A stretch of 62,342 nt of DNA, filler included, from Hausera hauseri (lineage: Eukaryota): NCBI GenBank assembly GCA_046269625.1. It is 11 parts of 11 records of this genome, joined end to end, with 100 filler letters (N's around TTAATTAATTAA, not from the genome) between each part and the next. Parts side by side here need not be neighbours in the genome. Positions count along the whole stretch, not along the records: positions 17,004 to 25,418 come from JBJURY010649885.1; 10 more parts are not named here. One strand, written 5' to 3'. Positions within the stretch are counted from its first letter, which is position 1. Each line of letters starts with the position of its first letter. Below the pieces are notes generated by a model. The model was given only the letters and a program-made list of their open reading frames with translations, did not search any database and was not told the DNA's origin. Positions 1,906 through 43,487 of this stretch are shown one piece after another. The position numbers and the translations under genes were made by a program.

Positions 1906-2101
1906 TTTCATAATAATAAATACTTGTTAATGTTACTGTTGTTTTTTTTCATGTATTGAAAATCATGTTTGCAAATTTCGTTTCATAAACATTACATGAG
2001 AGTAAAAAACAAGCTATTACAATATGAATACATTTTATCTACTTTTGTCAAAAACTCTACTATCATGTCACTTTAATAATTTTGCCATTTAGGATAAAGC
2101 G

Positions 2102-3948
2102 ATGCAGAAACGTCATTTTATTTTGGAAGATCAGAATGTTGAACGATATTCAACTTTAAACGGATCCCATGTTGATTTGCGGATTAACGTTGAACATGAT
2201 GGTTTAATAGACATGAGGCATGTTCCTCAACATCTCATTTTAAGACTAAAAGAAGAAACGGGACGTTTGCGATCGTGCAAAATTCAGTTTGGTGGTTTAG
2301 TTGAGTTTGAGAAATTTATTGAAGGTGACATTAAAAGATGGAGGCTGTCTCATCGTGCACAATCATGGAATGAGGACTTTATTGAACATGTTGGGCAAAT
2401 ACTGAATGAAAAAATTGAAAAATATTCAGAATGTGGCAGTGGATGGAGATTATGCCGGATAATTGAATTCACGTTTACTTTAACAAAAACATCAAACATT
2501 ATATACCTGACAGGAAGATCATATATCGCAACACCTAATGGTCTTTGTAAGTCAAAGTCTACAGTAAATGTTCAAAATTCAGATAATAAGTGTTTTTTAT
2601 ACAGTATTCTTGCTGTTTTGCATTACGGCGATGTACGACATCATCGCAATCGACCATATAATTATCTCCAATATATGCATGAACTCAACTATGAAGAAAG
2701 TGAAATGCCAATGAAATTAGCTGATATTAGTCGGTTTGAGGCTCGAAATCCCAATCTTGCAATTAATGTCTTTGGATACAACAATGATATTAGTGATATG
2801 ATTGATGAGCATCAGGAAGTGTTTAAAAACCCCCATGTTGATGTCTTGTATCGTTCGAAAAATCGTTCATCGTCATCATGTCGAATTGTTAACCTGTTGG
2901 TACTGCAGGGGTCGGACAGATTTCATTACGTAGCTGTGATAAATTTAAATCGACTTTTAAATATTCGCAGTGACGTGATTCGGATTAGTTGTAAATGGTG
3001 CCAAATTTGTTTACATGGTTTTAGATATCAAAAGGCATACGATAACCATGTTAAATTATGCTGTGCTCATGGTGAACATACAACATTGTATGTCATGCCA
3101 TCATCAAAAAATTGTCAGTTTACTGACTTATCTAAGCCTGTGTCTCCGGCTTTTGTTGTGTATTCCGATTTCGAGTCTGTCCTACCACCTTGCAGTGGTA
3201 GGTAAGAGCAAAACACGTTCCTGCAGCTGTAGGTTTAGTGCTTGTTCCGTTAAAGGATTCTAACTTATTGCCACAATATTACCATTTCGTGGGGGATAGT
3301 TGCATTGTAGATTATTTGACATGTTTGGAGTCTATGGCTAAAGATGTCGTGATTCCGTGGTATGATTAGAATGATCATGATCCTTTGTTTTCATTATCTT
3401 CAGAGGAGGAATCTGCGTTTCTTAAAGCCGAATTGTGTTATTTATTCAAAAAGGGGATATTGAATAAAGTTAGAGATCATGACCATTTTACATGTCAGTA
3501 TATAGGCGCTGCAATTATGAGCGAAAAGAATGCAAGTGAACTCCAGGATTTCGATCCTCCGACTTTGCCGAGAAAAGTCTTCTTTACTATAATGTAATGT
3601 TCAAAGACAGGTTCGCATGGTACTTCCGGTTATTTTCCATAATTTTAGAGGTTGATTCCCATCACATTATGAAATATGCCCTTAAGCATTTTCGAAGTTG
3701 GAAACCCAGTGTAATAGCACAAAGCCGAGAAAAGATTTTAGCCATGTTTGCGCGCATTTCTGGTAGTCTGAAAATTAAATTTATCGATTCATATCAACTT
3801 ATGTCCGAGTCATTGGACACCCTTTCTTCAAAGTTGGTACAATGGCCTTTGCCATCAACCGCCTTTTCAGGACAAATTGGTTATAGAAAAGGTATTTATC
3901 TTTACAATTTTGCAACATCATGAACTATATTGGAGAATACAACTGATT
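2102..3948 (+). pseudogene. Polinton/Maverick (adintovirus-like) protein-primed family B DNA polymerase, N-terminal half, frameshifted and cut by the contig end
   Basis: Motifs GSGW, SYIxTP, VNVQNSDNKCFLYSILA, HYVAVINLNRLL, CxxC...H...C, VVYSDFES, VRDHDHFT..YIGAA, KFIDSYQLMSESLDTL and RKGIY occur in the order typical of Polinton pPolB. Confidence 0.85.
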
Positions 3949-8376: not shown

Positions 8377-9850
8377 TGACTACGAAAAAAAAATAACTTG
8401 CAACATAATAGGATCATTTAGACAAAATGCGTCCATTTTTTATCGCACTTTATATACGGTTAAACTGACGGTAAATGATACAAAAAACAAACAAATTGCA
8501 AAAGATGTATATTTATTTGAAATACCTGAAGGCATTGATGATAGAGCATTGCTTTTAAATGTTACCTAGAAAGAATGGGCTATCAAGATGTAGACTTTAT
8601 TATGATTACACAAGGCTCCATATCCATTGCAGCGACGTATGGAAATCCCAAGTTGAAAATCATCAGATGTCACGTAGATACCTATTATTATTCATTTAGT
8701 GTTGGATCGGAAGTAGAATGTACTTATGTAGAAGAAAAATGGAGTCTGTGCTCTTTGTGCACGAAAAATTTTATTGCGTTTCCACGGGGAAATTTTACCA
8801 ATTATTATTTACCGAATCAATTATTATTTACTGAATCAAAATTGGAAATGTACAACACATTTCACGTTCATAATACCATCCCAAATAAAACAGACGTCCA
8901 AATATTTTATAAGCAAAACTTTTGGTCAGTAGATCTACTTCTGATAGAGGACCATGGTAATTTTGGAAAAGTTTATGGCAGTACTGATGATGATGAAAAT
9001 CACTCACTTGAGGACTATAAACAACCGACAGAAAATGAATATCTTTAGAAACCTGATCAAAATGATCACCAGGAACGATTTTCCCAGGAGCTCAGAATCT
9101 ATGCCAAACTAGATGGCAAAAGTGAATCTGGTAATAAAGCAAATATCAACAAACACATTCATGATCGACAAAAAATGCACCCACCGTTACTTCCGACTCC
9201 ATGGATACTTAAATAACAATTGCGACCAAAGTCAAGTCCTACGTCACCGAGTGGATTAGCAAATGGCTATTCACCTCAATCGAACTCCCGGGTGAAACAG
9301 TTGCTCGATTTCAAAATAACATCAAATATAAATGCTCAAACTGAAGACCGTTGTGCAAAACATTGTTTGAAGAGCACTTCAAAATTTCTAATGATTCCAA
9401 AATCTTTATTCCGAAACAAATGCTTATTAACGAACCTCATGTCACTTTGTTCGAGGAGGAAAATGATAGCTTATCACAGAACAAGAACAATTCAGAAACT
9501 GGTTTACATTGCTCTAGTAGTTCTCCAATAAACTTTTCACCTAAGTCATGTAACAATCATCCAACCGCTACACAGTGTTCGGGGTACTCAACTCCGACAT
9601 CTTATTGCTCGACCAATTCCGACGAAATAACACAAGGTAATTGTGACAGTTATTCATATACTCGATCATTTAAAATATCGGACGTTTCACCTGTAATTCA
9701 CATATCATCTCAGAATTATGATGGTCCTTATCGGAAAATTTCTGTTTGTTCCTCATCGAGAAGTCATTCTGGTTTTAATAATTTTGGTCGAAATACAAGG
9801 GATTCTCTGGCTGAGGGACCGAGCGTGCCCGCCCCCGTTACACCACTTCT
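8377..9850 (+). pseudogene. Unknown coding region (Cys/aromatic-rich part, then Ser-rich part) upstream of a UBL-Gag
   Basis: ORFs 8575-9048, 9220-9531 and 9351-9983. The last reads in frame into the ubiquitin-like domain. Confidence 0.45.
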
Positions 9851-10067
9851 TTCTTTTCTCATCTTTTCTAATAATAAACATGTCTATACATTGAGGGTTG
9901 CACACAAACAAACGGCACATATTCATTATTCTGAATTGTCCTTTTTTTCGGCTCCTATTTTTATTGTATGCATAATGGCCTAACTTTGTTACCTTACGAC
10001 TCTGTCATCCTTTACACCCGGGAAATATTCCATGACTCTCATTGTCCATTTTCGCATCCGTGGCGGA
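9850..10067 (+). pseudogene. Ubiquitin-like domain ending RIRGG (copy 1), frameshifted
   Basis: FLIFSNNKHVYTLRVAHKQTAHIHYSEL..FYCMHNGLTLLPYDSV..MTLIVHFRIRGG; RIRGG is at 10053-10067. Confidence 0.7.
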
Positions 10068-17003: not shown

Positions 17004-17601
17004 AGCTTCCAGTGTTACTTTGTGGCTAAGAATGCTCTTCGCCAGTTGTTCAATTTTGTTGAAGTAGGCGTCCGGTTCTGCCCCCTCCTTATTCTGTAAT
17101 TCAAGGCTTCATGCATATCTCCGCACAGCGTTGTGGGTTTTGAAAATGCTTTTCTGAACCGGTTTTGGTATCCTTTCACCTTCTGGTTCACCAGATTGTA
17201 TTTTTCCTGTACATCATCCGCCATCACGCACAGGACCGCAGTTTCTCTGTCCGTCTCCAACATCTTTATGAAGTCGAAGTATCTCGCATTTTCCAATAAG
17301 GGTTTCCACGTTGTCACCTTTCTGGAATTCTATCGGCATCAATTTCTTGAAGGAGTCCCTTGAAGTGTTAATCGCCATGTTAGTAGATCGCATCTCTACC
17401 ATCCCGACCTCAACATCATTTGATGGTTGTACGATTGAATTATCCATAAGATATTTATAAAAGTTTTATATAACAATTATCTTCACTCATTAAATGAGTC
17501 TTATTTTCCTCCTTTCCTGAATTTCCTGACTTTCAATTGGTTGTTTATTGAATTAACTTTGAATTGAATTTAAACATTAATATCCGTTTAAATTCCTCAC
17601 A
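17004..17601 (-). mobile_element. Gypsy 5' end: LTR 17378-17601, primer-binding site (PBS) TGGCGA.., and gag start
   Basis: TG..CA bounded LTR homologous to 54442-54671. Gag GYQNRFRKAFSKPTTLC is homologous to GYQNRLRKTFARSSTLC in ORF 28144-28740. Confidence 0.85.
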
Positions 17602-17807
17602 CCGTCTGTACACCTTGTTGCGTATTTTGCGTAGGTTAATATTTTTTTTACTGTTTGGAATTAAATTTAAACTATCGTCTGATTTATGTCTGTCAATATT
17701 CGTTCTAGATTCAATAGTATGTAGTTATAATACTGAAGGTTTCTGATCGCTAATGTGTCGTTACTTTTGACTAAAGTCAAAGTCTAGGAAGTACAAACTG
17801 GTCCTGT

Positions 17808-18029
17808 TAGGGTCGCCAAATGTTAGTAGTTGAAGGTGGGCCCTATTCAACGCCCAACTATAACAACAAATGAAACTCGAATTGAACAAGAATTTATAAG
17901 CAGGTAAGTCCTAACGTTCTCGTTAGAATGTTTGTACTATTTTATGATGCGTGTACTGCTTCCGGTGCTTTGCGTAGTATAGAAAATTCTCGACTTAACT
18001 ATGAAGTTTAAGACAATTTTAATCTTTAA
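17808..18029 (-). mobile_element. Partial LTR and PBS (TTTGGCGACCC) of a further nested element
   Basis: gggtcgccaaa|tgttagtag junction at 17820/17821. Confidence 0.55.
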
Positions 18030-18666
18030 TGTGGTACAAGTCTCTCTTAAGGAGCGATAAAAAACTATAAGATTTTGAAATTCAAAATTTATTAACAACA
18101 ACTAAGAATACTTACGACAATCGTAGAAATCGCCAGTCGATAAGAATAATACGGAAAATCAAATATCGGTTCGGTTTCTCCACGGAAACTTCTTTCTGAC
18201 AATCAGTTCACTAGTTCTGGTTACTTCTTTGAATTTCTCGATTTCTCTAAGTCTTTATTCTCGAAGTCTTTCTTAACTCTGGATTCTTTGATTTTGATTC
18301 TGATTCTTTTGTTCTTTCTTATTGTCTTCTTCCTATTCTGTTACCTTCGTCGTATTCTGATTCTCTTCTGTCAATTCGATCGTTTTATATACTTTTACGA
18401 TCAGCGATTTTTGTGGAAGTTGTGTGTTTCAATCTGATTTGTAATTAAATAATTTCATATTCGCACATTTTCTTCGTTGCGTACATAATTACATATGCTA
18501 AGTAATTATTAGGTAATCGCTGGTTAAGAATTCTAAATGCTAATTATCATTTTCAATTTCACTTTCGGTTTCGTTTTTCAATTTCGCTTTATTTACATAT
18601 GGATAATTTACTGTTTACAGCTTTTGTACAACATTTCCTACTCTTTCTACAACATTTCTCCTCCCT
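18030..18666 (-). mobile_element. Polypurine tract and 3' LTR of the complex Gypsy element
   Basis: Minus strand AGGGAGGAGAAA|TGTTGTAG at 18666-18647 and AATAAA at about 18090. The distal boundary is approximate. Confidence 0.7.
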
Positions 18667-18676
18667 GAACGGCACT

Positions 18677-19080
18677 CTAGGATGTGCTTATTGAGTCAGA
18701 AGAGGTGTCGCGTAAACGGTTCGTTCGTCCACATAAGTCCGTTTCCGAATCCGATTTTCGGGGTGATTGTGGATCAAAGCGGTATGATGTAGCGGCCTTT
18801 TGGGGAAATATTTCCACTATCCTTTTACTTTCTCCATTAGAAAAATATCTCAATCTTGTAGCTTCGGTCCTACATACTGGGGAAGTCGTTTCACAATTTT
18901 CAGGATCCACGTTTCTAAGCAGTAACGGCAGTATTTATGGGTGCAATCTTTGTTATCCAGTACCATAAATCCTTGGTAGAGATTTGCGTCGCAAACAGGA
19001 CATTCTTCCTTTTCTCCTCCGTCAATGTCTACGAGGTTCGTTCGAATATGAGTCCCTTTTATCTTGGTATAGACATCCAT
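18677..19080 (-). pseudogene. RING-HC finger protein carried by the Gypsy element, frameshifted
   Basis: CPVC-x15-CTHKYCRYC, with PVCR continuing in the adjacent frame. Confidence 0.8.
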
Positions 19081-19156
19081 ATAGCCGTTTTTTGGGGTCT
19101 AAAAAACTTTTCTTAGGGTCATCTGACACGGTGACCAACGTCCATTCAACGATTTC

Positions 19157-20788
19157 TTATTTATCTAAGTCGTGTATTCCGGTTTTCTTGTTCTGCCTTT
19201 TAAGTTGTACTCGGACTTGGGTATCTACTGGAATGGTTAATCTATTGGTACCATTTTTCGACTGGAATATTATGGCTAAGTATCGGCCAATGGTTACATC
19301 CTCTCGGGCATATCCGTTTCCACTTACGATTCTTCTAGGAACGGTGGAGACATAAAACATGGCTTCTTTAATTTTTCCTCTGCTATAATACTCGGCCATA
19401 ACAAGCATTTGGGCGTATTCTTTAATCTGACCGAACTCGGTTACCATGATAGAGGCTGGTTCTTCCCAATTTCTTCGCAGAACGTTTACTTCCGTTCTAG
19501 TTGATCCGCAACTGAGCGTTTCCGTTCCTCGTCCGGTGATTTTTCCGGGTTTGGGCGTTTTCAGTTTGTCTTTGGATTCTATTATTTCTTCTTGGGCCGT
19601 CGGCATTAGGCTGCTAGTGGACGGTTCTATCCCTTCAGCACAGTTTTTATTTGTCTTGGTTTTCTTCTTGCTGATATACTCAAAGAAAGAGGGTTTCATC
19701 TTTTGTCGTCTTCGTAATTCTTCAGCTGGTCTGTACTTGGTTTGGACTCGATCGATTGAGGATTGGCTGTACTTATTTGATCCTTCTGGTTTGAATGGTT
19801 TGGCTGGACTGTTCTGAACGGTTATTCGGAAATTATTATGCCCTTGGGGTTCAATCTCTCTGGATATCGGGTATTCACTAAACCCGTTACGAAATTTCTG
19901 CATTAAGATTTTTGGATTATTGTCAGAGATTACATTCTGTGTAGGGTTTCTGGGTTTCCACCCGTGTTCCCATCGCAGCGATATGTAAATATCTCTTATT
20001 AGTTCCGTGCGTTGGCTTGCCGTCATCAATTTAGGAAATCTAAATTGTTCGCCATTCATGGCTTCAAGCATCATCTTAAACTGTGATTCTCGTGACGCTG
20101 AGGGAAGTAGACATCCTCTTTTCCTCATTAGGGTGTTTCTCACGCGGGTTACAACCGCCGGGTTACGACTTAGTTCACGAATTCCAGCTATGTACTCTTG
20201 TCTAATCCCTAGCCTTTCTAACATTTCGTGTTCTCTAAATCCGGTTATAACGAATCCATACAAGAAATGGTTTATATCTTCTTGGATTTCTAGGAAATCT
20301 TTGCCTTTCTCAAGTTGTAGTTTCGTAATTCCGGTAACGTCAGGAAATGTATCTTTTACTTTAATTCTAGGTGCGATTATTTTGTTTATAATTTCTTTTC
20401 CGTGTATACTTCGGATAGAGACTTCGATTGGGGTGTACCATCGGTCATCCTTCTCTACATAGTTTACGGCTAAAATTCGAGAATTTCGGCCGTCCGGAAC
20501 TAGTCTGAACGATTCTCCATTTTGTTCTATCTCATCTTCCGAGGGTTTCTGTATACATAGTATAGCTGGTAGTGGTCTCATAACTTCGGTCCGTAAGGTT
20601 AATTCAAACATAAGCTTGGTTGGAAGCTCGGCAATTCTGAACTCCAAAGCATAATCCATGAGACTATAGCAACATAACTCGTAGGTGCTAAATTTCCACT
20701 GTTGTCCTCTTTGTGTGCTCCTGCATTGGACTTCTCCGTCAGCGACATGTATGTACAATTGCTGATGCGTCGGTTCATATAGGATCAT
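19157..20788 (-). CDS. 543-aa accessory ORF with a degenerate DEDDh (REX4/ISG20-like) exonuclease domain
   Basis: IEVSIRSIHGKEIINKIIAP...VKD.FPDVTGITKLQLEKGKDFLEIQEDINHFLYGFVITGF resembles the REX4-family pattern RVSIV...G....D.YV.P...V.DY.T.VSGI....L.....F..VQ.....LL.G.ILVGH. Catalytic acidic residues are not clearly retained. Confidence 0.65.
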   Translation of the reverse strand: MILYEPTHQQLYIHVADGEVQCRSTQRGQQWKFSTYELCCYSLMDYALEFRIAELPTKLMFELTLRTEVMRPLPAILCIQKPSEDEIEQNGESFRLVPDGRNSRILAVNYVEKDDRWYTPIEVSIRSIHGKEIINKIIAPRIKVKDTFPDVTGITKLQLEKGKDFLEIQEDINHFLYGFVITGFREHEMLERLGIRQEYIAGIRELSRNPAVVTRVRNTLMRKRGCLLPSASRESQFKMMLEAMNGEQFRFPKLMTASQRTELIRDIYISLRWEHGWKPRNPTQNVISDNNPKILMQKFRNGFSEYPISREIEPQGHNNFRITVQNSPAKPFKPEGSNKYSQSSIDRVQTKYRPAEELRRRQKMKPSFFEYISKKKTKTNKNCAEGIEPSTSSLMPTAQEEIIESKDKLKTPKPGKITGRGTETLSCGSTRTEVNVLRRNWEEPASIMVTEFGQIKEYAQMLVMAEYYSRGKIKEAMFYVSTVPRRIVSGNGYAREDVTIGRYLAIIFQSKNGTNRLTIPVDTQVRVQLKRQNKKTGIHDLDK

Positions 20789-21050
20789 ATCTTTCAGAAG
20801 GTATGCTCATGCATCCTTTGTATCCCGCATCAAGTATAATCGGATTAGTCGATTTTCCTCTAAGCCCCATTTCAATCCATAGTATTTTGCTTTCTTGATC
20901 GATTTCTACATAAATTCTGTTTTTAAGACTTTCTCCAATCTGGCGATATAGACTCTTCAAGGTTGGTTTGAGCACGGTTACATGTTGCTGTAGGAATTCG
21001 TCGATGTCGTATCTGGGATTTTGTACTGAATTCTTCGCCTTTTCGGCCAT
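20775..21050 (-). CDS. Small accessory ORF, possibly the frameshifted N-terminus of the 543-aa ORF
   Basis: The ATG at 21050 is preceded by a splice-acceptor-like tract, and the ORF overlaps the next one by 14 nt. Confidence 0.5.
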   Translation of the reverse strand: MAEKAKNSVQNPRYDIDEFLQQHVTVLKPTLKSLYRQIGESLKNRIYVEIDQESKILWIEMGLRGKSTNPIILDAGYKGCMSIPSERYDPI

Positions 21051-21153
21051 ATTTACTCTACTAAAATAAAAAAAGGTCAATCCTAAGACAGATCATCGTT
21101 TTGAACCAAGATATTTCCTCTGTCTGATGATAGGATAACGCGGTCTGTAACTG

Positions 21154-22480
21154 TCAGGTTATACTATCATAAAGCCCGTCTCGGTACCCTTTTTCCTGTT
21201 TATCCCTCCTTTGATTTTTACGCTGTTTATTACAGTTTTTGGAAACTAAGAAAATCGTCACTGTTAATATGACAAGAAGGAAAGTTGACAAACCGAATAT
21301 AGTTATTATCGGTAAACTATTTGCCTCATTAAGCCCTTTTGTGGCAAGAACATTGCGGGTACTAAGATCTTTATATCGCGTTGCTCTTGATTCGTCATTA
21401 CGAGTCCGCACCGTGAAAGTTTTAGGTCTTCGACCCTTGGCAGTAATTCGGATCACATAATCGTGTTGCGGCAGCAAAGATTTACATTCGATTTCTCGAC
21501 TGTTTTTTAAAATTACGATATGATTAGTGTGTAAAGTTCGGCATTCAATTTTAACTTTGTTGTCTATCAATTCTTCTGTATAAAACAGAATTTTATTATT
21601 TTGCGCCAATACCTTAATTGGTATACTCCCCAATTCTTTCTCGGGTATTTCACTCGAAGTGATCATCGCAGTGGAATTACTCGTACGCGGAACAGTAGAC
21701 ACTTTTCTCGTAGTTGTTGGAAGCGGAAGTTTCCATATTCCGACCTTTGGGCGATATCCTCTCAAATATGTACTTGGTTCGTTTGGGTAAGTATTATACA
21801 GATCAAGTTGCAATTGATAATCGTGTTCTAACGGCAGTCTACAGCACGTAGTAGATCAGCGTCGTGCAATATAAGAATACTCTATGGACGGGGTTGAAAA
21901 GTTTAATGGTATGAACCAAATGGAGATTTGCCTATCTCCTGGTAATTCTATTTTAGTATTAATTCGAATACACTAGTTCTGGAAGTCCTTTTCCATCTCA
22001 ATAATGTTAAAATCTAGTGGTCTCCTAAATGGACCGGTATTCCGAATTTTTTCGTTTGTCTTGGCTTTGTTCGCATCGCCTGGTTCGGGCATTTTTATTT
22101 CAAATTTGGTAATTATGTAGGCCTGGGCTCCGTGCAGGTTATAATAGAACATTTGAAGTTTATATTTATATGTTTGATGGAAATCTTAGTTGCAATATTT
22201 CTGATAGGTTCCATACGGAAAATCACACGTCTTCATTTCGACACCAATCCTATTCATAAATATTATTTGAAACTTTACGCAGTTCTTAACCAATTCGCTT
22301 GCCTTGAACCAGGCACAGGGTTTGCTCCAATCCATATTGTATACTCCAAGTGACTGCAAGTTTTGCATATCCTTTCGTCTTTCTGCATATTGCCGTTTCT
22401 CGGTCAGGGTTATTGATCTTACGTTTGGCATATATGAGGCGATTAATGACAAGGCAAGAACTATTTGTACATATGATATC
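21154..22480 (-). pseudogene. Type I membrane protein with FN3-like repeats, in frame with the integrase tail
   Basis: Signal-like YVQIVLALSLIASY, a single frame with 3 stops, FN3-like LPLEHDYQLQL and LLPQHDYVIRITA, TM IITIFGLSTFLLVILTVTIFLV, and a basic tail ending GLYDSIT. Confidence 0.65.
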
Positions 22481-25418
22481 GGTCTTGTGGCTATCGATGA
22501 CGTTTTCCCTTCTTGCTTGGGTAGTCTCGGATTATCTCTGTCCGAACGCAGATTATAGCGTTTGTTCGGCCTTATTTCCATTCTAGCCACTCTTTGTATT
22601 GATATGACTTTTGCCTTGCCATTTCTATTAATATAAACTGTAGTTGGCGTGATTCTGATAACTTCGTATGGTCCTCTGTTGTTCGGGTACGTTTCAAAGA
22701 TGTACCTTTCTTCGCTACTGGATAGTGCACATATATCCAATTCCCTTGTTCTAGATCGTGTGGTTTAGCCTTTTTGTCATATTGCTTTTTAAATTGTTCT
22801 TCATATTATTTGGATAATTCTTTAGCTATTTTCCAACACTTGTGTAATCTCATCTGTAATACTTCAACAAAGTTTCGCTCTAACTATTTCGTTTTAACTG
22901 TATGTGGTATCATTCCTAAATCTGTGGATAATACAGCTTCTCTGCCATACATCATAAAAATGGAGTAAACCCTGTTGCAGGATGTGGTGTAATGTTTATG
23001 GCAAACTGTGTGCTCTCTAAAAATTCGCCCCAATCTTTCTTGTCCTTCTCAACCACGGTGGATAAGATCCGTATAACTGTTGCATTCATTTGTTCAAACA
23101 ATCCGTTGCACTCAGGATGGTAAGCCGTTGTGGTTAATTGTTCAATCTCGAATATTTTGGTAATTTTCTCAAAGAGCTCACTTGTAAAGTTTCTTCCTCG
23201 GTCTGTCAAAATTTGTTTAGGAGATCCGTATCTACAGTTAATCTTCCTTACTACGGCTTCTGCCAGAGTTTCGGCCTTCTGGTCCATTAATGCTATAAGC
23301 TCGACAAAATGAGTTAATCGATCTACACATGTTAGAATATACTTATTATTTTTGTGAGTTGTAGGTAACGGCCCTACAATATCCATGGACATTGCTTGCA
23401 TTGGTCTGTCCGGCACGTTTATCGGTTTAAGTTCGGCGATGTAGTTCTTCACTTTTCTCTGTTTGGTTGCACATACCTCGCAAGCATTCACCCAATTTTT
23501 TACGTCAATATAAACGCTCAGCCAATAATAATTATTTAATATTCTCTCTAATGTCTTCTTTCATGACATGTGTCCGACTAAGTAATAGTCGTGTTCGTCC
23601 ATTAGTAATTTTGTACGTAATCCTTTTGGTATGACTACTAATTTTCGTCCTTTCCGTTCATAATACAATAAGCTTCCGCGGTTCATGACTCCTGTTGCAC
23701 AGTATTTATGACCATGTCTTTGCAAATGCGTTCGTAGTTGGTTACCCTTTGGCGTTATATTGTTTCCGACAAATTCGATGATTTGTTGTATAATTTTGTC
23801 CTTCTTTTGTCCGTTAGAAATTTTAATTACTTTATCCATTTTTAGAACCCGTTGTTTATCTACTAATTCTTTGAGTTGCGCTTTTCCCATTACAGTGATC
23901 GCGCTTGTTTTGGTTTTGAGTCTTCATAATGCATCGGCATCGACATGTTTGCTTCCGGGTTTGTACTGAAATTCAATATTATATCGTGAGATCTATTCGA
24001 TCCATTTTGTTGAGTCTACATGTCGGATTATTTGCTCTGCCTTTCAAGGTTGTAACGGCTTTACGATCCGTAACAGTTATAGTCTTCTGTCCGTAGACGT
24101 ATACGTTAAAGTATTGTAGAGCTTCTTTTACAGCTAACGTTTCTAATTTTGTAACAGAATAATTCTTCTCAGCTTTTTTTAGTGATCGTCCTCCGTATGC
24201 GATTGGAGGTTCCAATTCTTCATCTTCTCGTTTTTGAGTTATCTCGTACCCAATGCCTTTTTTGCTTGCATCCGTTTTAATTATGAACGGTAGATTAAAA
24301 TCAAGATATCTTAAAATGGGTTCGCTAGTTAAGATTTTCTTCATTTCGTCAAAAGCTTTTTGTTCAACATCATTCCATTTCCATTTAATCCCCTTTTTAA
24401 GCAAGCGATACAAGGGTTTATTTATTTTTGAATTGTCCGGTACATAAGTGGCGTAATATCCTCATAAGCCTAACCAGTGTCTTAACTCTTTCGAATTTTG
24501 AGGTTTCATACAATCTGATATCTTTCTCAACAGTGATTTATCCGGTTTTTATCTTCTTTCTCCAACTATATGTCCAAGATAAGACACAGAGTTTTGAGCA
24601 CATTTACATTTCAATCCGGCTTGTTCTATCCGCATGATCGTGTCTTCAATGTCTTTAGATGTTCTTCTTCCGTTTTGGATGCAACCATTACATCGTCTAG
24701 ATATGCGAACGCGTGTTTTAGTCCCATTAACATCTTATTCATCATTGGGGTAAAAATAGCTGGTTATGTAGTTATTCCGAATGGCATGACGTTGAATTCT
24801 TACACACCGTCGTGCGTTTTAAACGCAGTTTTATAGCGGTCTTCTTCCTCTATCTCTACTTGCCAATATTCAGATTGTAGATCAAGTGTGATGAACCCCT
24901 TTGCTCCGGAAAGCCTATCTAGGGCTTCTTTTACCGATGGTAGTAAAAATGAATCATTCATCATAAATGTGTTTAACGCTCGATAATCGATACAAAATCG
25001 GTGCTTCGTAGTACTTTTCTTCTTAATCATGAGTATAGGGGAATACCACAATCGGTAGCTCGGTCTAATTATGTCGGCCTTTAACATTCGTTTTAGTTCT
25101 TTTGTTATCGCCGGTCTTAACGAGTGTGGAGGAGGATACCATTTCGGCATCTTTTGGTCTTCTAAATCAGTTTTCTCATTGGAGCCAGTCTTTTTCTTAA
25201 GCCGAATTGTTAGTCATAAGGCTTTGACTCTGCCAATGTCCTGTTCGTCTTTAGCGATAACTGAGCTATAATGGCAAAGTAATTCGTAAAATCGGCAGTA
25301 TGACTCGGGCGAAAATTTAGTTTCTACGTGAGGTGGAAATTCGGCACATTTGTAAGGTTTTTCTTCAATCGTTATTGCTGACACTCTATAAGTGTGCCCC
25401 AAAGTTGTGTTACCATAT
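22480..25418 (-). mobile_element. Gypsy pol (RT-RNase H-integrase), decayed
   Basis: RFCIDYRALN, LDLQSEYWQV, YLDD, IKTDASKKGIG, H..H/CxxC, MDIVGPLP, LTDRGRNF, AYHPECNG and GPY. Confidence 0.95.
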
Positions 25419-29995: not shown

Positions 29996-30204
29996 CAAAA
30001 CCATGATTCTAACATCCTTATTTTCTTAAATATTAAGTTGTTTTGGTACCCATTTTTATCTTCTATTTCGACATTAATCTTATTTTATATTGGAAACAAG
30101 TGTAATCGCCAAATCCTACCCAAAAGCCACAAATTTTATAGTAGGGTAAAAATGAGGAGTCTGCACCACCACCTCCTCCCCATCCGAAGGGATCAATAAT
30201 TCAA

Positions 30205-30946
30205 TTTTGCACATGGTGCACTATCGATCGGTAGTGTGCTATGCGACGGTGCCGTTAGGCACCGTTGCTATGCACATTTATGCACATTTCACAAATCGAT
30301 CGCTGCATTTTGCAAAATTGCTCGAATTGATCGGGACAATGTGCTAATCGATAGTGTACATCAGTGCACATCGATTGGTGCACAGTGCAAATGAGCATCA
30401 CATGTGCAAGTGTGCAAAAATCAATAATGTCGGATTTCCGATAATTCCAATATTGATGATTAGCACATGGCACCGGGTGAAACCGAAAGCACATACGATG
30501 CACCATGTGAATGTGCAGTTAGAATTTAAATATATTGATTGGTTTTCGAATAATTGCCAACTGGGGCAGAATGCCCATAGGCCTTTCCGTTATAAAATGA
30601 AAATCAATAATATCAATATGACACATACTGGCGGGTAGAGTACTTGATGTACTATCGTTCAGTGAAATACTCGAATCAAGTGTGCTCTTGGATACGGTTG
30701 CTAAGGCACTTTTTCACTTTTCACATATTGGTCACTGCAACGTAAGATTGATGGAATCGATTGGTGTCAAGTGCAGGTAAATAGAGCACATCGAGATGCA
30801 CCTTGATATATACTGTGCAGTGCAAAAGAACATGTGCCAGTATGCAAAAATCAATAATATTGGATTTCCGATAATCCCAATATTGATGATTAGCACTTGG
30901 CACCGGGTGCAATCGAAAGCACACATGATGCACTGTGCCAATGTGC
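30205..30946 (+). repeat. Dispersed repeat with an internal tandem unit of about 430 bp; a reverse-complement copy lies at 36540-37330
   Basis: gcaaaaatcaataat.t.ggatttccgataat.ccaatattgatgattagcac occurs twice here and twice, inverted, in contig 8. Confidence 0.85.
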
Positions 30947-36539: not shown

Positions 36540-37330
36540 ATTAATCGATAAATAATGGATAAATTTAAATTCTAACTACACATTCGTATATTACACCATG
36601 TTTCCTTTCGAATGCACCAGGTCACATGTCCCAATCATCTATATTGGATTTATCAAAAATTCCATATTATTGATTTTTGCACACTTGCACACGTGTTTTT
36701 GCACTGCACACCACATATCAACGTGCATTTCGATGTGCTCTATCCATTAGCTTTTCACTCCGATCAATTCAATCAATCATACGATGCACAAGAGCAAAAG
36801 TGTGCAAAGTGAAAAAGTGCCCTGGAAACCGTATACAAAAGTACACATTACTCGAGTATTCCACTGATCGAAAGTACATCACGTACTGCATCCGCCAGTA
36901 CATATGCAATATTCATATTATTAATTTGAAATTTATAGCGGAAAGGCCTGTGGTGGTTCGGTCCCACTTGCGAATTATGTGAAAACCAATCATTCGATTT
37001 AAATTCTATCTGCACATTAATATAGCGCATCATGTGTGCTACCGATTTCACCCGGTGCCGAGTGCTAATCATCAATATTAGATTTATTGGAAATCCAATA
37101 TTATTGATTTTTGCACACTTGTACATGTGCTGCACACCTGCACTGTGCACCAATTGATGCATACTGATGTGCACTATCGACCACCATTTTGTCCAGATCG
37201 ATTCGATCAATACTGCAATGTGCAGCGATCGATTTGTAAAATGTGCCAAAGTGCACCTAGCAACCGTGCCTAGCGATACCGTCACCTAGCATTCTAAAGA
37301 TCGATAGTGCTCCGTGTGCTCTATTGATTG
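36540..37330 (-). repeat. Second copy of the repeat family at 30205-30946
   Basis: Reverse-complement similarity across both tandem units. Confidence 0.85.
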
Positions 37331-37386
37331 GCACATGTTCAGTATCGATTCCTGGGGGGTGGGACCGAACCGCCATTTTTCCCCTA

Positions 37387-39870
37387 TTAACGGTCTACGC
37401 ATGTTAGTATATATTTGTTATTCTTGTGCGTCGTGGGTACTGGTCCCACGATGTACGTCAATATGGCTTTCATTGGTCTATCTGGTACAGCTGTCTGTTT
37501 CAGCTCTGCTATGTAATTCCACATTTTCCTCTGCTTAGTCGCCCATACTTTGCAAGTGCTTACCCAGTTTTTCACATCACTATATCTACTAGGCCAATAG
37601 TATTTGTTTAACGCCCTATCGAACGTCTTCTTCCAGGACATGTGTCCAGTCAAATACGAATCGTGTTCGGCCATTAAAACTTTAGTCTGTAGAGTTTTTT
37701 GAATAACTACTAATATTCTTTCCTTTCGTTCGTAATACAACACTTTTTCATTGTTATTGTTCTTGGAGACACAATATTTATGTCCACGTCGTTGTAAATG
37801 TTTCGCTAACTGGTGCCCTTTTGGCATTACGTCTGCTTCAGCGAAATCCATGATTTGTTGGATAACTTGATCTTTCTTTTGTTCGCTTGAAATTCTAGTT
37901 GCTCCGTCCGACGCTAAGGTTCGTTGTCGATCTACTAACTCTTCGAGCTGGATTTTCTTCATCGTCACAATAGCACTTTGTTTTCATTTTTAATAGTAAC
38001 AACGCATCAGCATCAACATGCTTCACACCAGGTTTATATTGGAATTCAATATTATATCTTGAGATCTCTTCAATTCATCTATTCAACCTACACGTAGGGT
38101 TGTTTGCTCGTCCCTTTAAATTTGTAACTACCTTGTGATCGTAACTATTAATATCTTCAGTCCATAGACGTAAACGTTAAAATGCCTTAAGGCTTCTTTT
38201 ACTGCTAACGTTTTTAGTTCTGTCACTGAATGGTTTTTTTCTGCTTTTTCAGGAAGCGTCTTCCATAAGCAGTTGGATGTTCTAGTTCTTCGTCTTCGCG
38301 TTTCTGTGCCAATTCATATCCGATATCTTCTTTACTTGCGTCTCTTTTAATAATAAACGGTAAGTTAAAATCAGTACTGGTTCGCTATTTAGTATCTTCT
38401 TCATTACGTCGAACGCCTTTTGTTCAACATCGGTTCATCTCCATTTCGTTCGCTTTTTTAATAATCGGTATAATGATTCATTGATTTTTGAGTTCTGCGG
38501 TACGTAGGTAGCATAATATCCACATAGACTTAACCAATGTCTCAGTTCCTTTTGGTTCTGAGATTCCATTCAGTTTGAAATTTTATTCAGTAATGATTTG
38601 GAGGCTTGGATCCTTCTTCGCCAACTATATGGCCAAGATAGGACACGGCGTTTTGGGCCAATTTGCATTTTTTGGGGTTTACTTTTAACCCGGCTTGTTC
38701 TAATCTCATAAGAGTGTATTCAATATCCTTCAGATGCTCCTTTACGTCTTCTGATACAATCATTGCGTCATCTAAATACGTAAATGCATGTTCAAGTCAC
38801 ATTAGCACTTTATTCGTCATCCTGGTTAATATGGCTGGACCAGTGGTAATTCCAAATGGCATAACGTTGAATTCGTATACGCCATCATGAGTTTTAAACA
38901 CTGTTTTATAACGATCTTCATCCTCAATCTCTACTTGCCAATATCCGGATTGTACGTCCAGAGTGGTGAACTATTTTGCTCCTGAGAGCCTGTCTGGAAC
39001 CTCTTTCACAGATGGTAAAGGAAACAAATCTTTCATCATGAGAATATTTAATACTCTATAATCGATACAAAATCGATGTTTTGTGGTACCTTTTTTTAAC
39101 CATAAGAATAGGGGAATACCATGATCTGAAACTTGGCCGGATTATATCGGCCTTTAACATACGTTCTACCTCCTTGGTTACCTCCAGCCTTACAGAATGC
39201 GGCGGCGGATACCATTTTGGCATTTTTTGTTCTTCGAGATCGATTTCATAGTTGGAACCAGGCTTTTTCTTAAGTGGTATAGTGAATTTTAACGTCTTTG
39301 CTCGGCCTGTATCTTCTTAGTCCTTCGCAATGATTGATTTATATCGACATATTAATTCGTAAAACTGGTAATAAGCTTCTGGTGAAAACTTTGTATCGAC
39401 GTGTGATGGAAATTCAGCGTATTTATACGGTTTCTCTTTAACCGTTACTGCTGATACATTGTAGATATGCCCTAGAGTAGTATTAGCATATAACCTCATT
39501 GAAGTATGAGGATTATTCATTATTTTTACAGGTATTCGTCCCGACGCTACTCGGGTTAATATATTGCTCAATATTATATTCGGGTTTAGTGTTTATTTTG
39601 GCTCAAAATATGCTGGTAAATCGTCGTCTTGACAGATTTGTGCAAATAAGAACAATTCCGTTCTGGGAGGAATGTTTTCGTCGACTGCAATCCAGACTTC
39701 TCCGGGTTCCCTCTCTTTATTAATCTTATTTCCTTTCATTGGTCCGAGCTTGATTAACTTCGAGGCATTCAAATCTACCACGATGTTTGGTAGACGTCTC
39801 AATATATCACACCCTAGCACCATATTATTCCATTATAGAAAATTCATATTGGAATATTTGTTCCATTATT
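37387..39870 (-). mobile_element. Gypsy pol (protease C-terminus, RT, RNase H, integrase N-terminus), a close relative of 22480-25418
   Basis: VLGCDIL, HRFCIDYR and YLDD. QLEELVDRQR..QKKDQVIQQI..PKGHQL..HLQRRGHKYC matches QLKELVDKQR..QKKDKIIQQI..PKGNQL..HLQRHGHKYC. Confidence 0.95.
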
Positions 39871-41910
39871 TTAAGATTAGGATTCCACTTAAATTTTGGT
39901 CTTGATTCTTGTCCGAGTATATTACTTTGCGATCATCTACCGGCTGGCGGCATAATTCGGATTTTTCCATGTTTTGGTACATCTTCCGTAGCACGCTGTA
40001 TTGTTTTGTCACTTCATAGGGATCATCGTAACTGAAAGGCTTTCGATAAATTTCCGAACTACAGGAGTTAATAGATCTCTTATTGCTGTCTTCGTATTGC
40101 GGTGCCGAAGGGGGCAGCATTGGTAAAGGCGGCCTAAGCGTCTTACGATTGCTTATCTTGGAGACCGCGTCTCCTCCCTTAGGCTCATCATCATCCGAAT
40201 CATTTCTTCGAAATTTTGTATTTCTTTGTCCTATAAAAAATATAGGTTTTCTCTTTTGTTTCCGATTATAATAACCAACGTATCTCTCCACGTCACTTTT
40301 CCATTTGTTTTCTTTGTAGGCCTTCAAAAATTTTCCAAACAGTGTTATGATCGCGGTCAAAATTTTGCATGAAAATCCGGTTAGAGTAAATATTTCGTTG
40401 TCATTTATGATGGATTGAATTATAACCTTTATAAGTTGTATCAAGAAATAGATGGCTAAAAATCCTGATGCAGCTTGTCCGAAAATTAAAAATCCTCCCC
40501 AGATTTTATATAGTATTTCTGTAGTGACTCTTTGATAATGATTAACGCCAAGTAGGGATTCCCATTTTGCTTGATAGCGAGTGTCATCCATCACCGTTGA
40601 CATAGCTCTATTTAGCTCATGTGTACGCTGTCGAGGGAAGGCTAGGAATTGTCTTAAAGCTTCAATTGCCTTTGGTCGGTAAATCCATTTACTTGCGGTG
40701 TCAGTGAACTTATCATCCGCTATGCATTTTAACAAATTTTTTTAGTTAATTTTCCCCGCGTGAGTATTATTCCTCCATTAGGCAGACTTACCAAATCTGT
40801 CTCACTCCTCTTGAACATAGGTTCGCCTAAACCTGCTTTGCATTCTTTGAAAACAATTGGTTGTGTCGCGTTTTCTAGCAAGACTCTATTGAGTGGCATA
40901 ACCAATCGAGGAACGTTTTGATATATGATTGGCAATTCTTGAATACAACGTTTTTCCTCCACGTTTAGGGATAAATCTCGTTTTTCGCATCCGTAGGTCA
41001 ACAGGACTTCTCCGGTAACTCTTCGAAAATGCCTTCTTTCATTGAAATTACGGGCGATGCTAGTTCTGGATTTGCGTATAATAAGGCTAGTGTGGTCCTC
41101 ATGATTTCCGTATCCAATTTACAGTCACCTGCGATCATCTTGCGGTATAACTCTGCAAGTCCAATTTGCCCTTTATAATAGAAGTAATCATCTCTATTCT
41201 TTAAGTAATCTTTCCGTGGTTTCGTTAAATTTATTTCTTTTATTTTAATAAAGGTACAATCGTTCATAGGTGGTGGGGTCCAAATAACTATTGTATTTCG
41301 GAAAGTACAGGCACCATCTTGGATATGACACTTCTGGTTTTCGGTATATTTTTGTGTAACTCTATGGAACATCACCTATTAATTCCTCATCTCTGTCTTA
41401 TGGAAATCAACTACTACTATTCATGCTTCTCTTCCTTTTCCTGTATTGTATTCACCTCATTTAGACTATCCCGTGTGCATGTTTAATTTCCCAGTTGCTA
41501 CTTTATACACCCGAATTATCATTCCTGGTTTAATTTCTAATTCCATCCCATCCCATCGCAATCTTCCGGTTTCCTTGGCTTGTTTGCATTGTTGTTGATC
41601 TAAATCCATAGGTATTAGCGGTGTCGTTGGATTTGCCATTGACGAATGTCCGTGTATATTTTCACAGTAGAAAATGCTTCGCAATTGTCGTAACATGCAC
41701 TCTATTCCGTCTATTGCGATTAGTTCGCGTTACTGATACAAGAAATACTTTTTCTCAATGGTTACTAATTTGTGGGGTCTGGCATCCTCATATAGCTCCA
41801 GATCTATCAGGGAATATTTTTGACCTATTTTAAACTTATCACAGTCATATACCGTAATTGCGCCGAGTTGTCTTATTAACATAATAAGTTTTATTAGTTT
41901 AATCATCCAA
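39866..41910 (-). pseudogene. Chuvirus-like (class III, gB-related) envelope glycoprotein, frameshifted
   Basis: Signal-like segment then VYDC...YSLIDLE, C..HGHSS, QCKQAKETG, CHIQDGAC....IVIW......C, C........CIQELPI.Y......MP..RVL, and C-terminal TM GGFLIFGQAASGFLAIYFLIQLIK. The Cys spacing is recalled from chuvirus-type G proteins. Confidence 0.7.
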
Positions 41911-43487
41911 TTTGATTCACTATCTCTTGCTGAGTTAGTTGGTATTAGATTCCTTACCATGTTTTCAATTCTAGTGGTCAACTTGTTTCTATCGTCGTCG
42001 TCAAATAGCTTTGACATATTTATCTCACTAGGTTTTTTCCTAGCAGCTTTTCGGATCAATCTAATGGTTCTATTAAATTCATTTTCCTTTAAGGGATTTG
42101 TTTTGATTGCCAAGTACAATATTACTTTCCCTAATTCTTCCTTAGTATTCTCTACTATAATTTTCTCGATTAAAACTTCTTCAGGTAAGTTGCTCTTGTT
42201 CATTTTGAACCGAAATGTTCTCATTATCTTTGCTGCGTCGTATATTGCTTTTTCCTTTTCATCTAACATCTCGTTTCTTGGTCCCGAATAGTTCATTATT
42301 TTTATAATGTTTCTCAGCAACTCGTTTAATTCTTCGCTATCGGAATTAACCGCGGGCATGGATAGGTGCCTTAGTTTTCATATCAGAGTTGCACTTTGGT
42401 CAATATCATCCTTATTTTTCTCGGCCTTCCAACTAGTCGTTTCTGTTTCAGCGCAGTTGGTACTTCTTCACTAATCGGTACTAGATTCTTATCTTATTGT
42501 TTCTTATCTTCCTCACTTTGGAGGTAGTCAAAATACATGACAGGGTCTCGGATTCCCATAATGTGCCCTACACAGTGTTCATTTCTAACTTTTCTTACAG
42601 CCTCATCTTTTGTCTGTTCATCGGTAATTATAGCCACTATTCGATTTTGTTCCTCCGGAATATTTCCAACGTCTGTTAGTAGCTCAGGAAGTATAACCGA
42701 TAATTTACTTAATCTTTCCCACTGTTTTGTAATATACATTGTTTTACTTCTCTAACCGATGTTATCGTTGTACATTTAATTTCTCTCTCTTCCATCCATT
42801 CAGCTTATATTTTTACCTTAATCGTTGGTTCGGGTTTAGCATTTAAGAAATCAGCGTATTTCTTTATCAATAGTCTGAGTACTAAGCTATAAACGGTATT
42901 TTCGCTTTATAGTTTGGTTAATGTAGGGATCAATTGTCTCAGTTTACTCCCCGTTATGTTTACGTTAATCTGTTCAATTAATTCTTTCTCGGCCCGTGCG
43001 GGGTATAAGAGCATCTCCATATCAAATCGTCGATCTGTTGGACGAATATCCATTTGTTGAAGTTGGATGGGTGTTTTGGGGTTTTGGTTGTACACATCTT
43101 CCAAATAGGCATCCCATCCTGAGTCGTCTGTGACGTCTGGTAATCTATAATCTAGTAATACCGTGGACGTACTTCGTATATTCTCGCGGATCTCATTTAA
43201 TCTTGACTGTACTTCTCTCATTAAGTTGGTCCTAAATTCTGCTCCGTTCCCACATGCCAATTGTATTGTTTTTAATGTCGGACCTAGTTCGTCTGTAGGT
43301 AACAACCCTCTTCTTTCATAATCTGTTAATTCGGTCGTTACATGCGTTAACCATCTTTGCACAAATTCTCTTTTACTCGTTAACTCTGACTGCGTGATCT
43401 TATATTTATTTTTATAAGTCTCCAATTCTTTGCCTAATTCATCTAGCTTCGCAGCTCTTTACTTTGTGCGGAGTCGCAACTCTTCTA
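41910..43487 (-). pseudogene. Helical gag-position ORF upstream of the glycoprotein
   Basis: ORFs 42907-43425, 42494-42739 and 41730-42359; the last runs in frame into the glycoprotein signal segment. No diagnostic gag motif was recognised. Confidence 0.45.

Follow-up and report, generated by a model that had tools for sequence, protein, structure and literature searches.

We analysed a stretch of 62,342 nucleotides (the window) from the Hausera hauseri assembly GCA_046269625.1, which consists of 11 short contigs with spacers between them. Contig 5 (17004-25418, JBJURY010649885.1) carries a Ty3/gypsy-type element with a cargo of additional coding sequence between integrase and a 3' long terminal repeat (LTR). 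With slightly better than even confidence, we explain it as a decayed copy of a multi-copy gypsy element with two 3' accessory genes, one encoding a membrane protein with a predicted immunoglobulin (Ig)-like domain and the other a predicted RING ligase whose dead nuclease fold would bind RNA. The anatomy of the element as laid out below is, in our judgement, very probably correct. A sister copy with a glycoprotein gene is located on contig 8 (36066-43487). The evidence was obtained from Pfam, tblastn, HMMER against 1.84 billion protein representatives, a PDB profile search, AF2, Foldseek, and contigs of sequencing run X1, which were compared with contig 5. Run X1 contains 0.41 of the sampled words; the window itself may come from the same sample or species, and the run does not count as independent. 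Depth in run X1 is summed contig depth and does not equal copy number, and coverage per place was taken from 40 of 1795 rows.

Structure of the gypsy element

Pfam searches identified reverse transcriptase (RT), RNase H, and the zinc finger and core of integrase on the minus strand of contig 5 in gypsy order. The following features were assigned to pol and the 3' end of the element:

24803-25418, minus strand: spacer preceding RT and N-terminal part of RT (PF00078, E = 1.3e-9), aligning with contig 8 from 39491 downwards
23982-24802, minus strand: remainder of RT and RNase H, with stops and frame changes (PF17919, E = 8.4e-32)
22560-23923, minus strand: spacer between RNase H and integrase, integrase zinc finger and core (PF17921, E = 2.7e-8; PF00665, E = 1.2e-15) and C-terminal GPY module (at about 22674), broken
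18655-18666, minus strand: polypurine tract, a run of 12 purines directly 5' of the TG at 18654 and the strongest conservation peak among other copies
18030-18654, minus strand: putative 3' LTR of 625 nt, TG...CA with 6 of 7 inverted terminal bases, TATATA at 18391 and AATAAA at 18259

The GPY module at about 22674 we take to be the C-terminal motif of integrase. According to the Metaviridae profile from ICTV, the international committee for virus taxonomy, pol is ordered protease-RT-RNase H-integrase, and about ten purines stand directly 5' of the 3' LTR (PMC7879559). Contig 5 displays this order from RT to integrase; the contig starts just past the protease, which falls outside it, and gag, the primer-binding site, the 5' end of the element, and any 5' glycoprotein lie beyond its edge. 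The purine tract likewise corresponds to the family pattern. Contig 5 contains three purine runs of at least 11 nt that stand before a TG, and the one at 18666-18655 coincides with the end of the reading frame of a homolog (P0001, see below). Only one LTR-like segment occurs in contig 5, with no second LTR, and its ends were placed by landmarks and by conservation peaks among other copies. In run X1, depth peaked at the purine tract and LTR start (9085 and 10564), at AATAAA (1468), and at the 3' end (3190), and ranged from 15 to 700 elsewhere in the LTR. Peaks at the start, the AATAAA, and the end form the pattern expected of LTR landmarks. A 419-nt contig of run X1 covers 17995-18413 with 3 differences; thus, the junction between the LTR and the next element is present in the raw data.

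The cargo spans 3804 nt from a signal-peptide-like stretch to the purine tract. This agrees with the preliminary description of the window, which had placed about 3.8 kb of cargo between integrase and LTR, inside the element; P0001 ends at the same junction of purine tract and LTR, and a run X1 contig joining 18865 to 22270 also counts in favour of this position. Cargo and pol share an A-rich coding strand (A 0.36-0.37 in the cargo compared to 0.39 in pol), and none of pol, the membrane protein gene, and the large gene is intact in this copy.

A second LTR element directly follows the LTR (17004-18029, minus strand), with CA, a primer-binding-site-like stretch at 17818, and very high summed depth in run X1. 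Its leader is 82% identical over 237 nt to contig 10, and its broken gag is 63% identical in nucleotides over 343 to the CCHC gag of contig 6. We considered whether the LTR belongs to this downstream element by tandem sharing, and rejected this since the downstream gag is related to contig 6 and not to the pol family of contig 5. The depth of most LTR bins (15-700), compared to 52,000-153,000 for the leader and gag of the downstream element in run X1, also counts against sharing.

A probable pseudo-nuclease-RING gene next to the polypurine tract

Upstream of the purine tract, the window displays open reading frames (ORFs) of 91, 543, and 76 amino acids. With the 543-aa ORF as query, HMMER returned two proteins in all from the 1.84 billion representatives and no cellular homolog. 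P0001 is an intact protein of 870 aa (39% identity, E = 4.6e-101), an ENA singleton encoded on a contig of 16,242 nt, and P0002 is a truncated protein of 333 aa (56% identity), an ENA singleton encoded on a contig of 12,445 nt. A word-based search with the same ORF gave nothing among 7999 candidates. In tblastn, P0001 spanned the 91-aa ORF, the 543-aa ORF, the stretch past its stop, the RING, and the tail, and P0002 bridged the small ORF and the 543-aa ORF. As P0001 covers all three pieces and P0002 joins two of them, we concluded that the three ORFs are pieces of one gene, termed cargo gene 2, which in contig 5 is interrupted by three frame changes and three stops near 20880, 20808, 19158, 19050, 18901, and 18678. 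The preliminary description had listed a membrane protein, a small ORF, a 543-aa ORF, a RING, the purine tract, and the LTR; this order stands, but its four genes reduce to two. The last eight residues of P0001 are those encoded by the purine tract and LTR start of the window, a match suggesting that an LTR of this kind likely follows P0001. The gene and its two recognised domains are:

18650-21050, minus strand: cargo gene 2, about 800 codons, one gene (P0001 aligning over all pieces, combined E = 2e-145 in tblastn)
19964-20503, minus strand: DnaQ/DEDDh-like domain without the canonical catalytic acids (80/178 residues identical to P0001, 45%; 52/89 identical to P0002, 58%)
18870-19032, minus strand: C3HC4 RING finger, split by a frame change (PF00097, 22 bits for the window piece, cut-off 21)

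The protein thus described comprises an N-terminal domain without known family, a pseudo-DEDD domain, a variable linker, an uncharacterised C-terminal domain, the RING, and a tail that reads on into the purine tract. Block by block, 43/95, 80/178 (nuclease-like domain), 19/50, 28/116 (linker), and 39/88 residues are identical to P0001. Structured blocks are 38-58% identical compared to 24% in the linker. A profile built from the three sequences and searched against the PDB (best 60 of 63 matches considered) matched DnaQ (8h18, E = 0.001), the PolC exonuclease (2p1j, E = 0.004), SDN1 (E = 0.16), and many RING ligases. Atlas returned RNase_T clusters at 0.76 for the nuclease-like domain, which we treat as a lead only. 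A thymidylate-synthase-like match to residues 5-50 (E = 1.9), absent from the best 60 of the 63 profile matches, was rejected as chance.

In either register, the first DEDD motif lacks both acids in all three homologs, and the second and third motifs are degenerate, without aspartates and histidine, in both proteins that reach them. Since the acids are missing in all homologs, their loss predates the decay of the contig 5 copy. The RING of P0001 scores E = 2.6e-7 (30.8 bits, cut-off 21) and retains all eight zinc ligands in C3HC4 spacing; the window copy has lost one ligand. By these sequence comparisons, the product of gene 2 is likely a DEDD-nuclease fold without catalytic activity, joined to a C3HC4 RING. 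Of the exonuclease-like character proposed earlier for the 543-aa ORF, the fold is weakly supported (profile E = 0.001), but the canonical catalytic acids are gone.

A predicted membrane protein in frame with integrase

The segment between integrase and gene 2 contains the following features:

21157-22470, minus strand: cargo gene 1, encoding a type I membrane protein with a length of about 440 aa, in a single frame (that of the integrase tail) with three internal stops
22470-22438, minus strand: signal-peptide-like hydrophobic stretch (hydropathy)
about 21627-21397, minus strand: Ig-like beta sandwich (AF2 model, pLDDT about 60 in the sandwich)
21300-21244, minus strand: transmembrane helix followed by a short basic tail (hydropathy)

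From 22764 to 21157 a single frame with three internal stops runs from the GPY module of integrase into the membrane protein, with no stop between the two. A single-sequence AF2 model of the last 233 aa (mean pLDDT 55) contains a beta sandwich at residues 77-153, which matches Ig, FN3, and other sandwich folds equally well (best Foldseek E = 0.008; best Z 7.5, rmsd 3.0, 85 residues aligned); no Foldseek match reached E <0.001. Pfam yielded no family above cut-off for gene 1, and the protein translated with X at its stops gave no PDB sequence match at E up to 10. Gene 1 likely encodes a type I membrane protein, for which the model predicts an Ig-like domain. The label 'FN3' given to it in the preliminary description could not be established, as Pfam fn3 scored E = 0.095 and 13.4 bits against a cut-off of 25; what the low-confidence model offers is an Ig-like sandwich.

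Diverged copies of the accessory genes

Contigs of run X1 gave 19,180 pieces on contig 5, 1184 of them at least 99% alike, 2964 at 95-99%, 7099 at 90-95%, and 7933 below 90%. Hence 15,032 of the 19,180 pieces were less than 95% alike, and all 30 bins of contig 5 were covered. Four of the eight longest pieces listed fall in gene 2, at about 79-91% identity. Among the rows considered, places in the cargo were covered by 2-40 contigs compared to 20-97 in pol. Three diverged contigs, at about 83-87% identity, connect the purine tract to the RING tail. Many diverged copies of the cargo therefore exist, and it is not unique to the contig 5 locus, the case that the preliminary description had named as speaking against it. 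Single contigs of run X1 jump from 18865 to 22270 and from 20367 to 21146, skipping parts of the cargo, and likely represent deletion derivatives of the family.

Within the RING core (18940-18988), 6 of 10 differences listed were synonymous, whereas random changes would give 19% (p = 0.005, or 0.09 with an expectation of 35%); the 10 differences come from 40 of 84 rows, leaving out rows outside the core and position 18905, where the frame is ambiguous. This excess gives weak support for selection.

Relation to a glycoprotein-bearing copy

Two features of contig 8 bear on the element:

39869-41905, minus strand: class III-type glycoprotein, broken, 5' of protease and pol (PF24664, E = 1.3e-19, 4.2e-4, and 7.8e-3 on three pieces)
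37387-39491, minus strand: pol, interrupted inside integrase by an unrelated repeat (71.5% nucleotide identity to 23314-25418)

The glycoprotein has a hydrophobic signal and anchor according to hydropathy; 157 open codons precede the signal, and the C-terminal piece is in frame, with stops, with the protease-spacer region. Only the C-terminal part of the protease is recognisable, judged by its motif. The repeat in the contig 8 integrase (36540-37387) has an internal duplication and also occurs upstream of the contig 6 element (30201-30946; 79% over 749 nt).

The relation of the two pol genes, as proposed earlier, was borne out: they are 71.5% identical over 2131 nt, which places the copies 28% apart, and around integrase the proteins are 64% identical over 198 aa and 73% over 81 aa. 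Searches for pol relatives (567-2000 aa, 1587 candidates; 1540-4900 aa, 984 candidates) gave 93 distant proteins that are only 25-42% identical on the integrase query. Given this contrast, contigs 5 and 8 are sisters. For the 93 distant proteins, no PF24664 was listed and none matched the glycoprotein or membrane protein pieces. Scans of JGI metagenomes and IMG/VR with cargo and integrase alignments returned one distant locus, L001, 35% identical and without similarity to cargo or glycoprotein.

A copy with both glycoprotein and cargo was found neither in the window nor in run X1, the JGI and IMG/VR scans, or the long proteins, and neither contig reaches the module of the other. No gag domain was recognised in the part of contig 8 that lies upstream of the glycoprotein (1.6 kb), including its two largest ORFs. 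This region (41905-43487, minus strand) looks coding, with pieces of 183 and 215 aa and no recognisable domain; Fis1 and S10 matches to its ORFs (E = 0.2-0.5) were rejected as weak. The map gag-glycoprotein-pol-cargo put forward in the preliminary description is supported in that the cargo lies inside the element, but its gag is assumed, since no gag domain was recognised in contig 8, and no copy joins both modules. The visible parts of such a composite add up to 11,386 nt; with a 5' LTR, leader, and gag, it would exceed 12 kb.

Other elements and genes in the window

On the minus strand of contig 9 (48650-51781), another integrase is represented by its C-terminal half; four unannotated ORFs (135, 146 (Cys-rich), 116 (hydrophobic), and 170 aa) and a short repeat common to contigs 3 and 10 come after it. 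Three of the ORFs were scanned without a Pfam match at cut-off. This arrangement may represent a second LTR family, one whose 3' cargo differs. A third gypsy-like element on contig 3 (10079-12601, plus strand) contains gag-like, protease-like, and RT pieces (RT E = 6.4e-24), with unannotated ORFs upstream (8545-9980). Contig 11 (59448-62066, minus strand) encodes RING and MATH domains in a TRAF-like gene; Burro elements also carry MATH. A DNA polymerase gamma exonuclease domain (PF18136, E = 9.6e-40) on contig 10 (52128-53393, plus strand) has an in-frame stop at about 52878 and no intron at that point, and is possibly a processed or decayed copy. Contig 1 (2093-3202, plus strand) contains an open frame of 370 codons without a Pfam match at E 0.01, and Pfam located C2H2 fingers in other contigs of the window. 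Together with the RING-MATH gene and DNA polymerase gamma, these fingers suggest that the host is likely an animal.

Discussion

The preferred explanation suggests how the two accessory genes may be expressed and act. As the frame is open from the integrase tail, the membrane protein was most likely made as an extension of Pol and released at the internal signal peptide; a separate start at an upstream Met is also possible. The message of gene 2 would be spliced or internal, which is the usual situation for third ORFs. Its dead nuclease fold probably holds nucleic acid and would in this way deliver the RING E3 to RNA-protein complexes, where the RING would ubiquitinate nearby host restriction or silencing proteins and so act in counter-defence. 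Dead DEDD folds that bind nucleic acid have been described in Exuperantia and in the PXL domain of PML (PMC13659232), and Maelstrom and EXD1 provide further precedents (PMC5408684). We regard counter-defence as a real possibility for gene 2, if a little short of an even chance.

Several observations weigh against this explanation. The DEDD assignment comes from a profile of three sequences with a best E of 0.001, P0001 gave no Pfam nuclease match at E up to 10, and its single-sequence AF2 model (pLDDT 31) is unusable for the fold. A glutamate three residues past the first-motif asparagine is kept in all three homologs, and a non-canonical active site is possible. Seventeen contigs of run X1 contain the purine-tract region but have unlike sequence upstream of 18707, and related elements without cargo may exist; 37 contigs diverge 7-10 nt into the LTR, which counts against a uniform family. 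P0001, P0002, and run X1 may all derive from the window's own host and would then represent copies within one host. The small number of differences behind the synonymous count and the lack of a single copy joining glycoprotein and cargo in the data searched point in the same direction.

Gene 2 might instead regulate the element's own RNA (export, splicing balance, or packaging), like CERV of Cer1 or retroviral Rev. A dead nuclease fold fits RNA binding and the linker is basic, but a RING suggests ubiquitination, which export adaptors do not need. In addition, a genomic RNA of at least 12 kb with a spliced 3' gene would face the export problem that CERV solves (PMC10309623). Taken together, we consider this role rather unlikely, though not negligible. 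Active exonuclease function, in which a non-canonical site would trim element RNA, cDNA ends, or small RNAs as may the DEDDy third ORFs of bdelloid elements, draws on the high conservation of the domain (45% and 58%), on the conserved glutamate near the first motif, and on the small-RNA nuclease SDN1 among the profile matches. However, both acids are missing from the first motif in either register, the second and third motifs lack aspartates and histidine, and the bdelloid ORFs retain their invariant residues (PMC5408684), so that we find an active enzyme hard to credit. Hardest to reconcile with the data is a cargo of passenger host DNA, captured once and carried without function. It would account for the broken state of all genes in contig 5 and for deletions, seen as joints (18865 to 22270), by which most of the cargo is lost, but an 870-aa frame is intact in a copy that is only 39% identical, identity tracks domain structure, in both copies the end of the frame coincides exactly with the purine tract, and the two HMMER matches include no cellular homolog; we therefore think it very improbable. 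Both active nuclease and passenger DNA are less likely than counter-defence and a CERV-like role.

Whether the contig 5 lineage also has a class III glycoprotein before pol is a separate matter. We consider such a composite reasonably probable because env tends to remain with pol (PMC13524379) and because the cargo homologs appear about as diverged as expected for the split of contigs 5 and 8. The glycoprotein copy and the cargo copy could also be different subfamilies, with the Ig-like protein replacing the class III envelope or unrelated to it. The 28% distance between the copies, the absence of a joint copy, the usual env position of the membrane protein gene, and the family-specific third ORFs of bdelloid elements (PMC5408684) all favour separate subfamilies. 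But since neither contig extends to the other's module, nothing can be concluded from the absence. The identity between contigs 5 and 8 (64% and 73%) exceeds by far that with any of the 93 database proteins, and cargo homologs at 39-56% identity suggest that the cargo is at least as old as the split. Separate subfamilies thus remain a serious contender, at somewhat less than an even chance. Should the composite exist, the fusogen would be joined by the Ig-like protein as another surface protein, for attachment or interference. Herpesvirus gD beside gB offers an analogy.

Individual parts of this element are already described. The order GAG-ENV-POL with gB-type envelopes has been reported in Nematoda, Bryozoa, and Platyhelminthes (PMC13524379, Chary and Hayashi 2026), and these errantiviruses resemble contig 8 in a class III-type glycoprotein 5' of pol. 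In contig 8 the glycoprotein is recognised by PF24664 (E = 1.3e-19); contig 5 starts past the protease and does not reach this position. Among 30 entries of supplementary file 1, which include every bryozoan element (10), every flatworm element (9), and 11 of 36 nematode elements, the outer LTR span measures 10.5-13.5 kb and is comparable to the size of the composite. No 3' accessory genes are described for them in the main text, where 'accessory', 'exonuclease', and 'RING' occur 0 times. The LTR search of that survey extended only 3000 nt past POL, and a 3.8-kb cargo would for this reason hide the LTR from it; of the flatworm elements 8 of 9, and of the bryozoan elements 4 of 10, are listed without an LTR, and similar cargo may be present, unannotated, in such entries. 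Internal regions of more than 15 kb are within the Metaviridae profile (PMC7879559).

Burro, the giant gypsy elements of planarians, have an env in frame between gag and pol that matches mononegavirus glycoproteins, and carry ubiquitination-linked and apoptosis domains, and the elements are described as integrated proviruses that meddle with host systems (PMC6431247); the link to ubiquitination is shared with contig 5. Their MATH, BIR, BCL2, ankyrin, and SUMO-like domains lie in or before an ORF1 of 4,900 aa, and none was detected here, where 1.6 kb before the glycoprotein is visible. With internal regions up to 25 kb, Burro is larger and richer in host-modulating domains, and its description mentions neither a pseudo-nuclease-RING gene nor an Ig-like gene after integrase (PMC6431247). 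Juno and Vesta of bdelloid rotifers (Rodriguez et al. 2017, PMC5408684) have genes for small membrane proteins and for proteins with an exonuclease fold after pol, as does contig 5. Their exonucleases are of DEDDy type with intact invariant residues, which gene 2 lacks, and the paper names no RING ('ring' occurs 0 times). In contrast, the closest matches of gene 2 are of DEDDh type (DnaQ, PolC, SDN1, RNase T), its site is degenerate, a RING is fused to it, and membrane and nuclease-like genes occur in the same element. DnaQ-like domains count as well-known accessories in one review (PMC6338049). PML isoform 1 unites a dead DEDD fold, the nucleic-acid-binding PXL, with a RING on one chain, but PML is a host protein, as is Exuperantia, and its RING-B-box-coiled coil comes first and PXL last (PMC13659232); neither was among the best 60 of 63 PDB profile matches, and the two serve as a working analogy only. 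CERV, encoded by Cer1 of C. elegans, is likewise an accessory protein from an animal LTR element and is translated from a spliced mRNA; the abstract mentions no nuclease fold or RING (PMC10309623).

Glycoprotein-before-pol order, a size of about 13 kb, and exonuclease, RING, or membrane accessories are thus each known from errantiviruses, Burro, or bdelloid elements, and the likeness to a complex virus drawn in the preliminary description was overstated as a novelty: glycoprotein-before-pol elements of 10.5-13.5 kb are catalogued (PMC13524379), and Burro goes further in size and host-modulating domains (PMC6431247). For a dead DEDD-RING fusion in an LTR element, and for an Ig-like membrane protein in frame with integrase, we found no description in the open-access literature searched.

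For animal LTR retrotransposons, the role of only a few accessory proteins is known. A pseudo-nuclease-RING fusion that is intact across copies only 39% identical is a candidate counter-defence or RNA-handling factor, for which P0001 provides a natural intact homolog. If the composite holds, two unrelated surface proteins would bear on the choice of cells by gypsy elements with class III envelopes. The search distance of the broadest survey, 3000 nt past pol (PMC13524379), marks a blind spot for such elements. A bolder proposal, which we put forward tentatively and consider improbable as it stands, is a lineage of complex invertebrate retroviruses of at least 12 kb in which a class III fusogen encoded before pol is paired with a second surface protein, an Ig-like one for attachment that is cleaved off the end of Pol. 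A dead DEDD nuclease fused to a RING would act there as an RNA-tethered ligase dedicated to suppressing small-RNA silencing, and the lineage would have been overlooked because surveys stop 3 kb past pol. If true, a herpesvirus-like division of the labour of entry and a lentivirus-like counter-defence gene would be united within one gypsy element.

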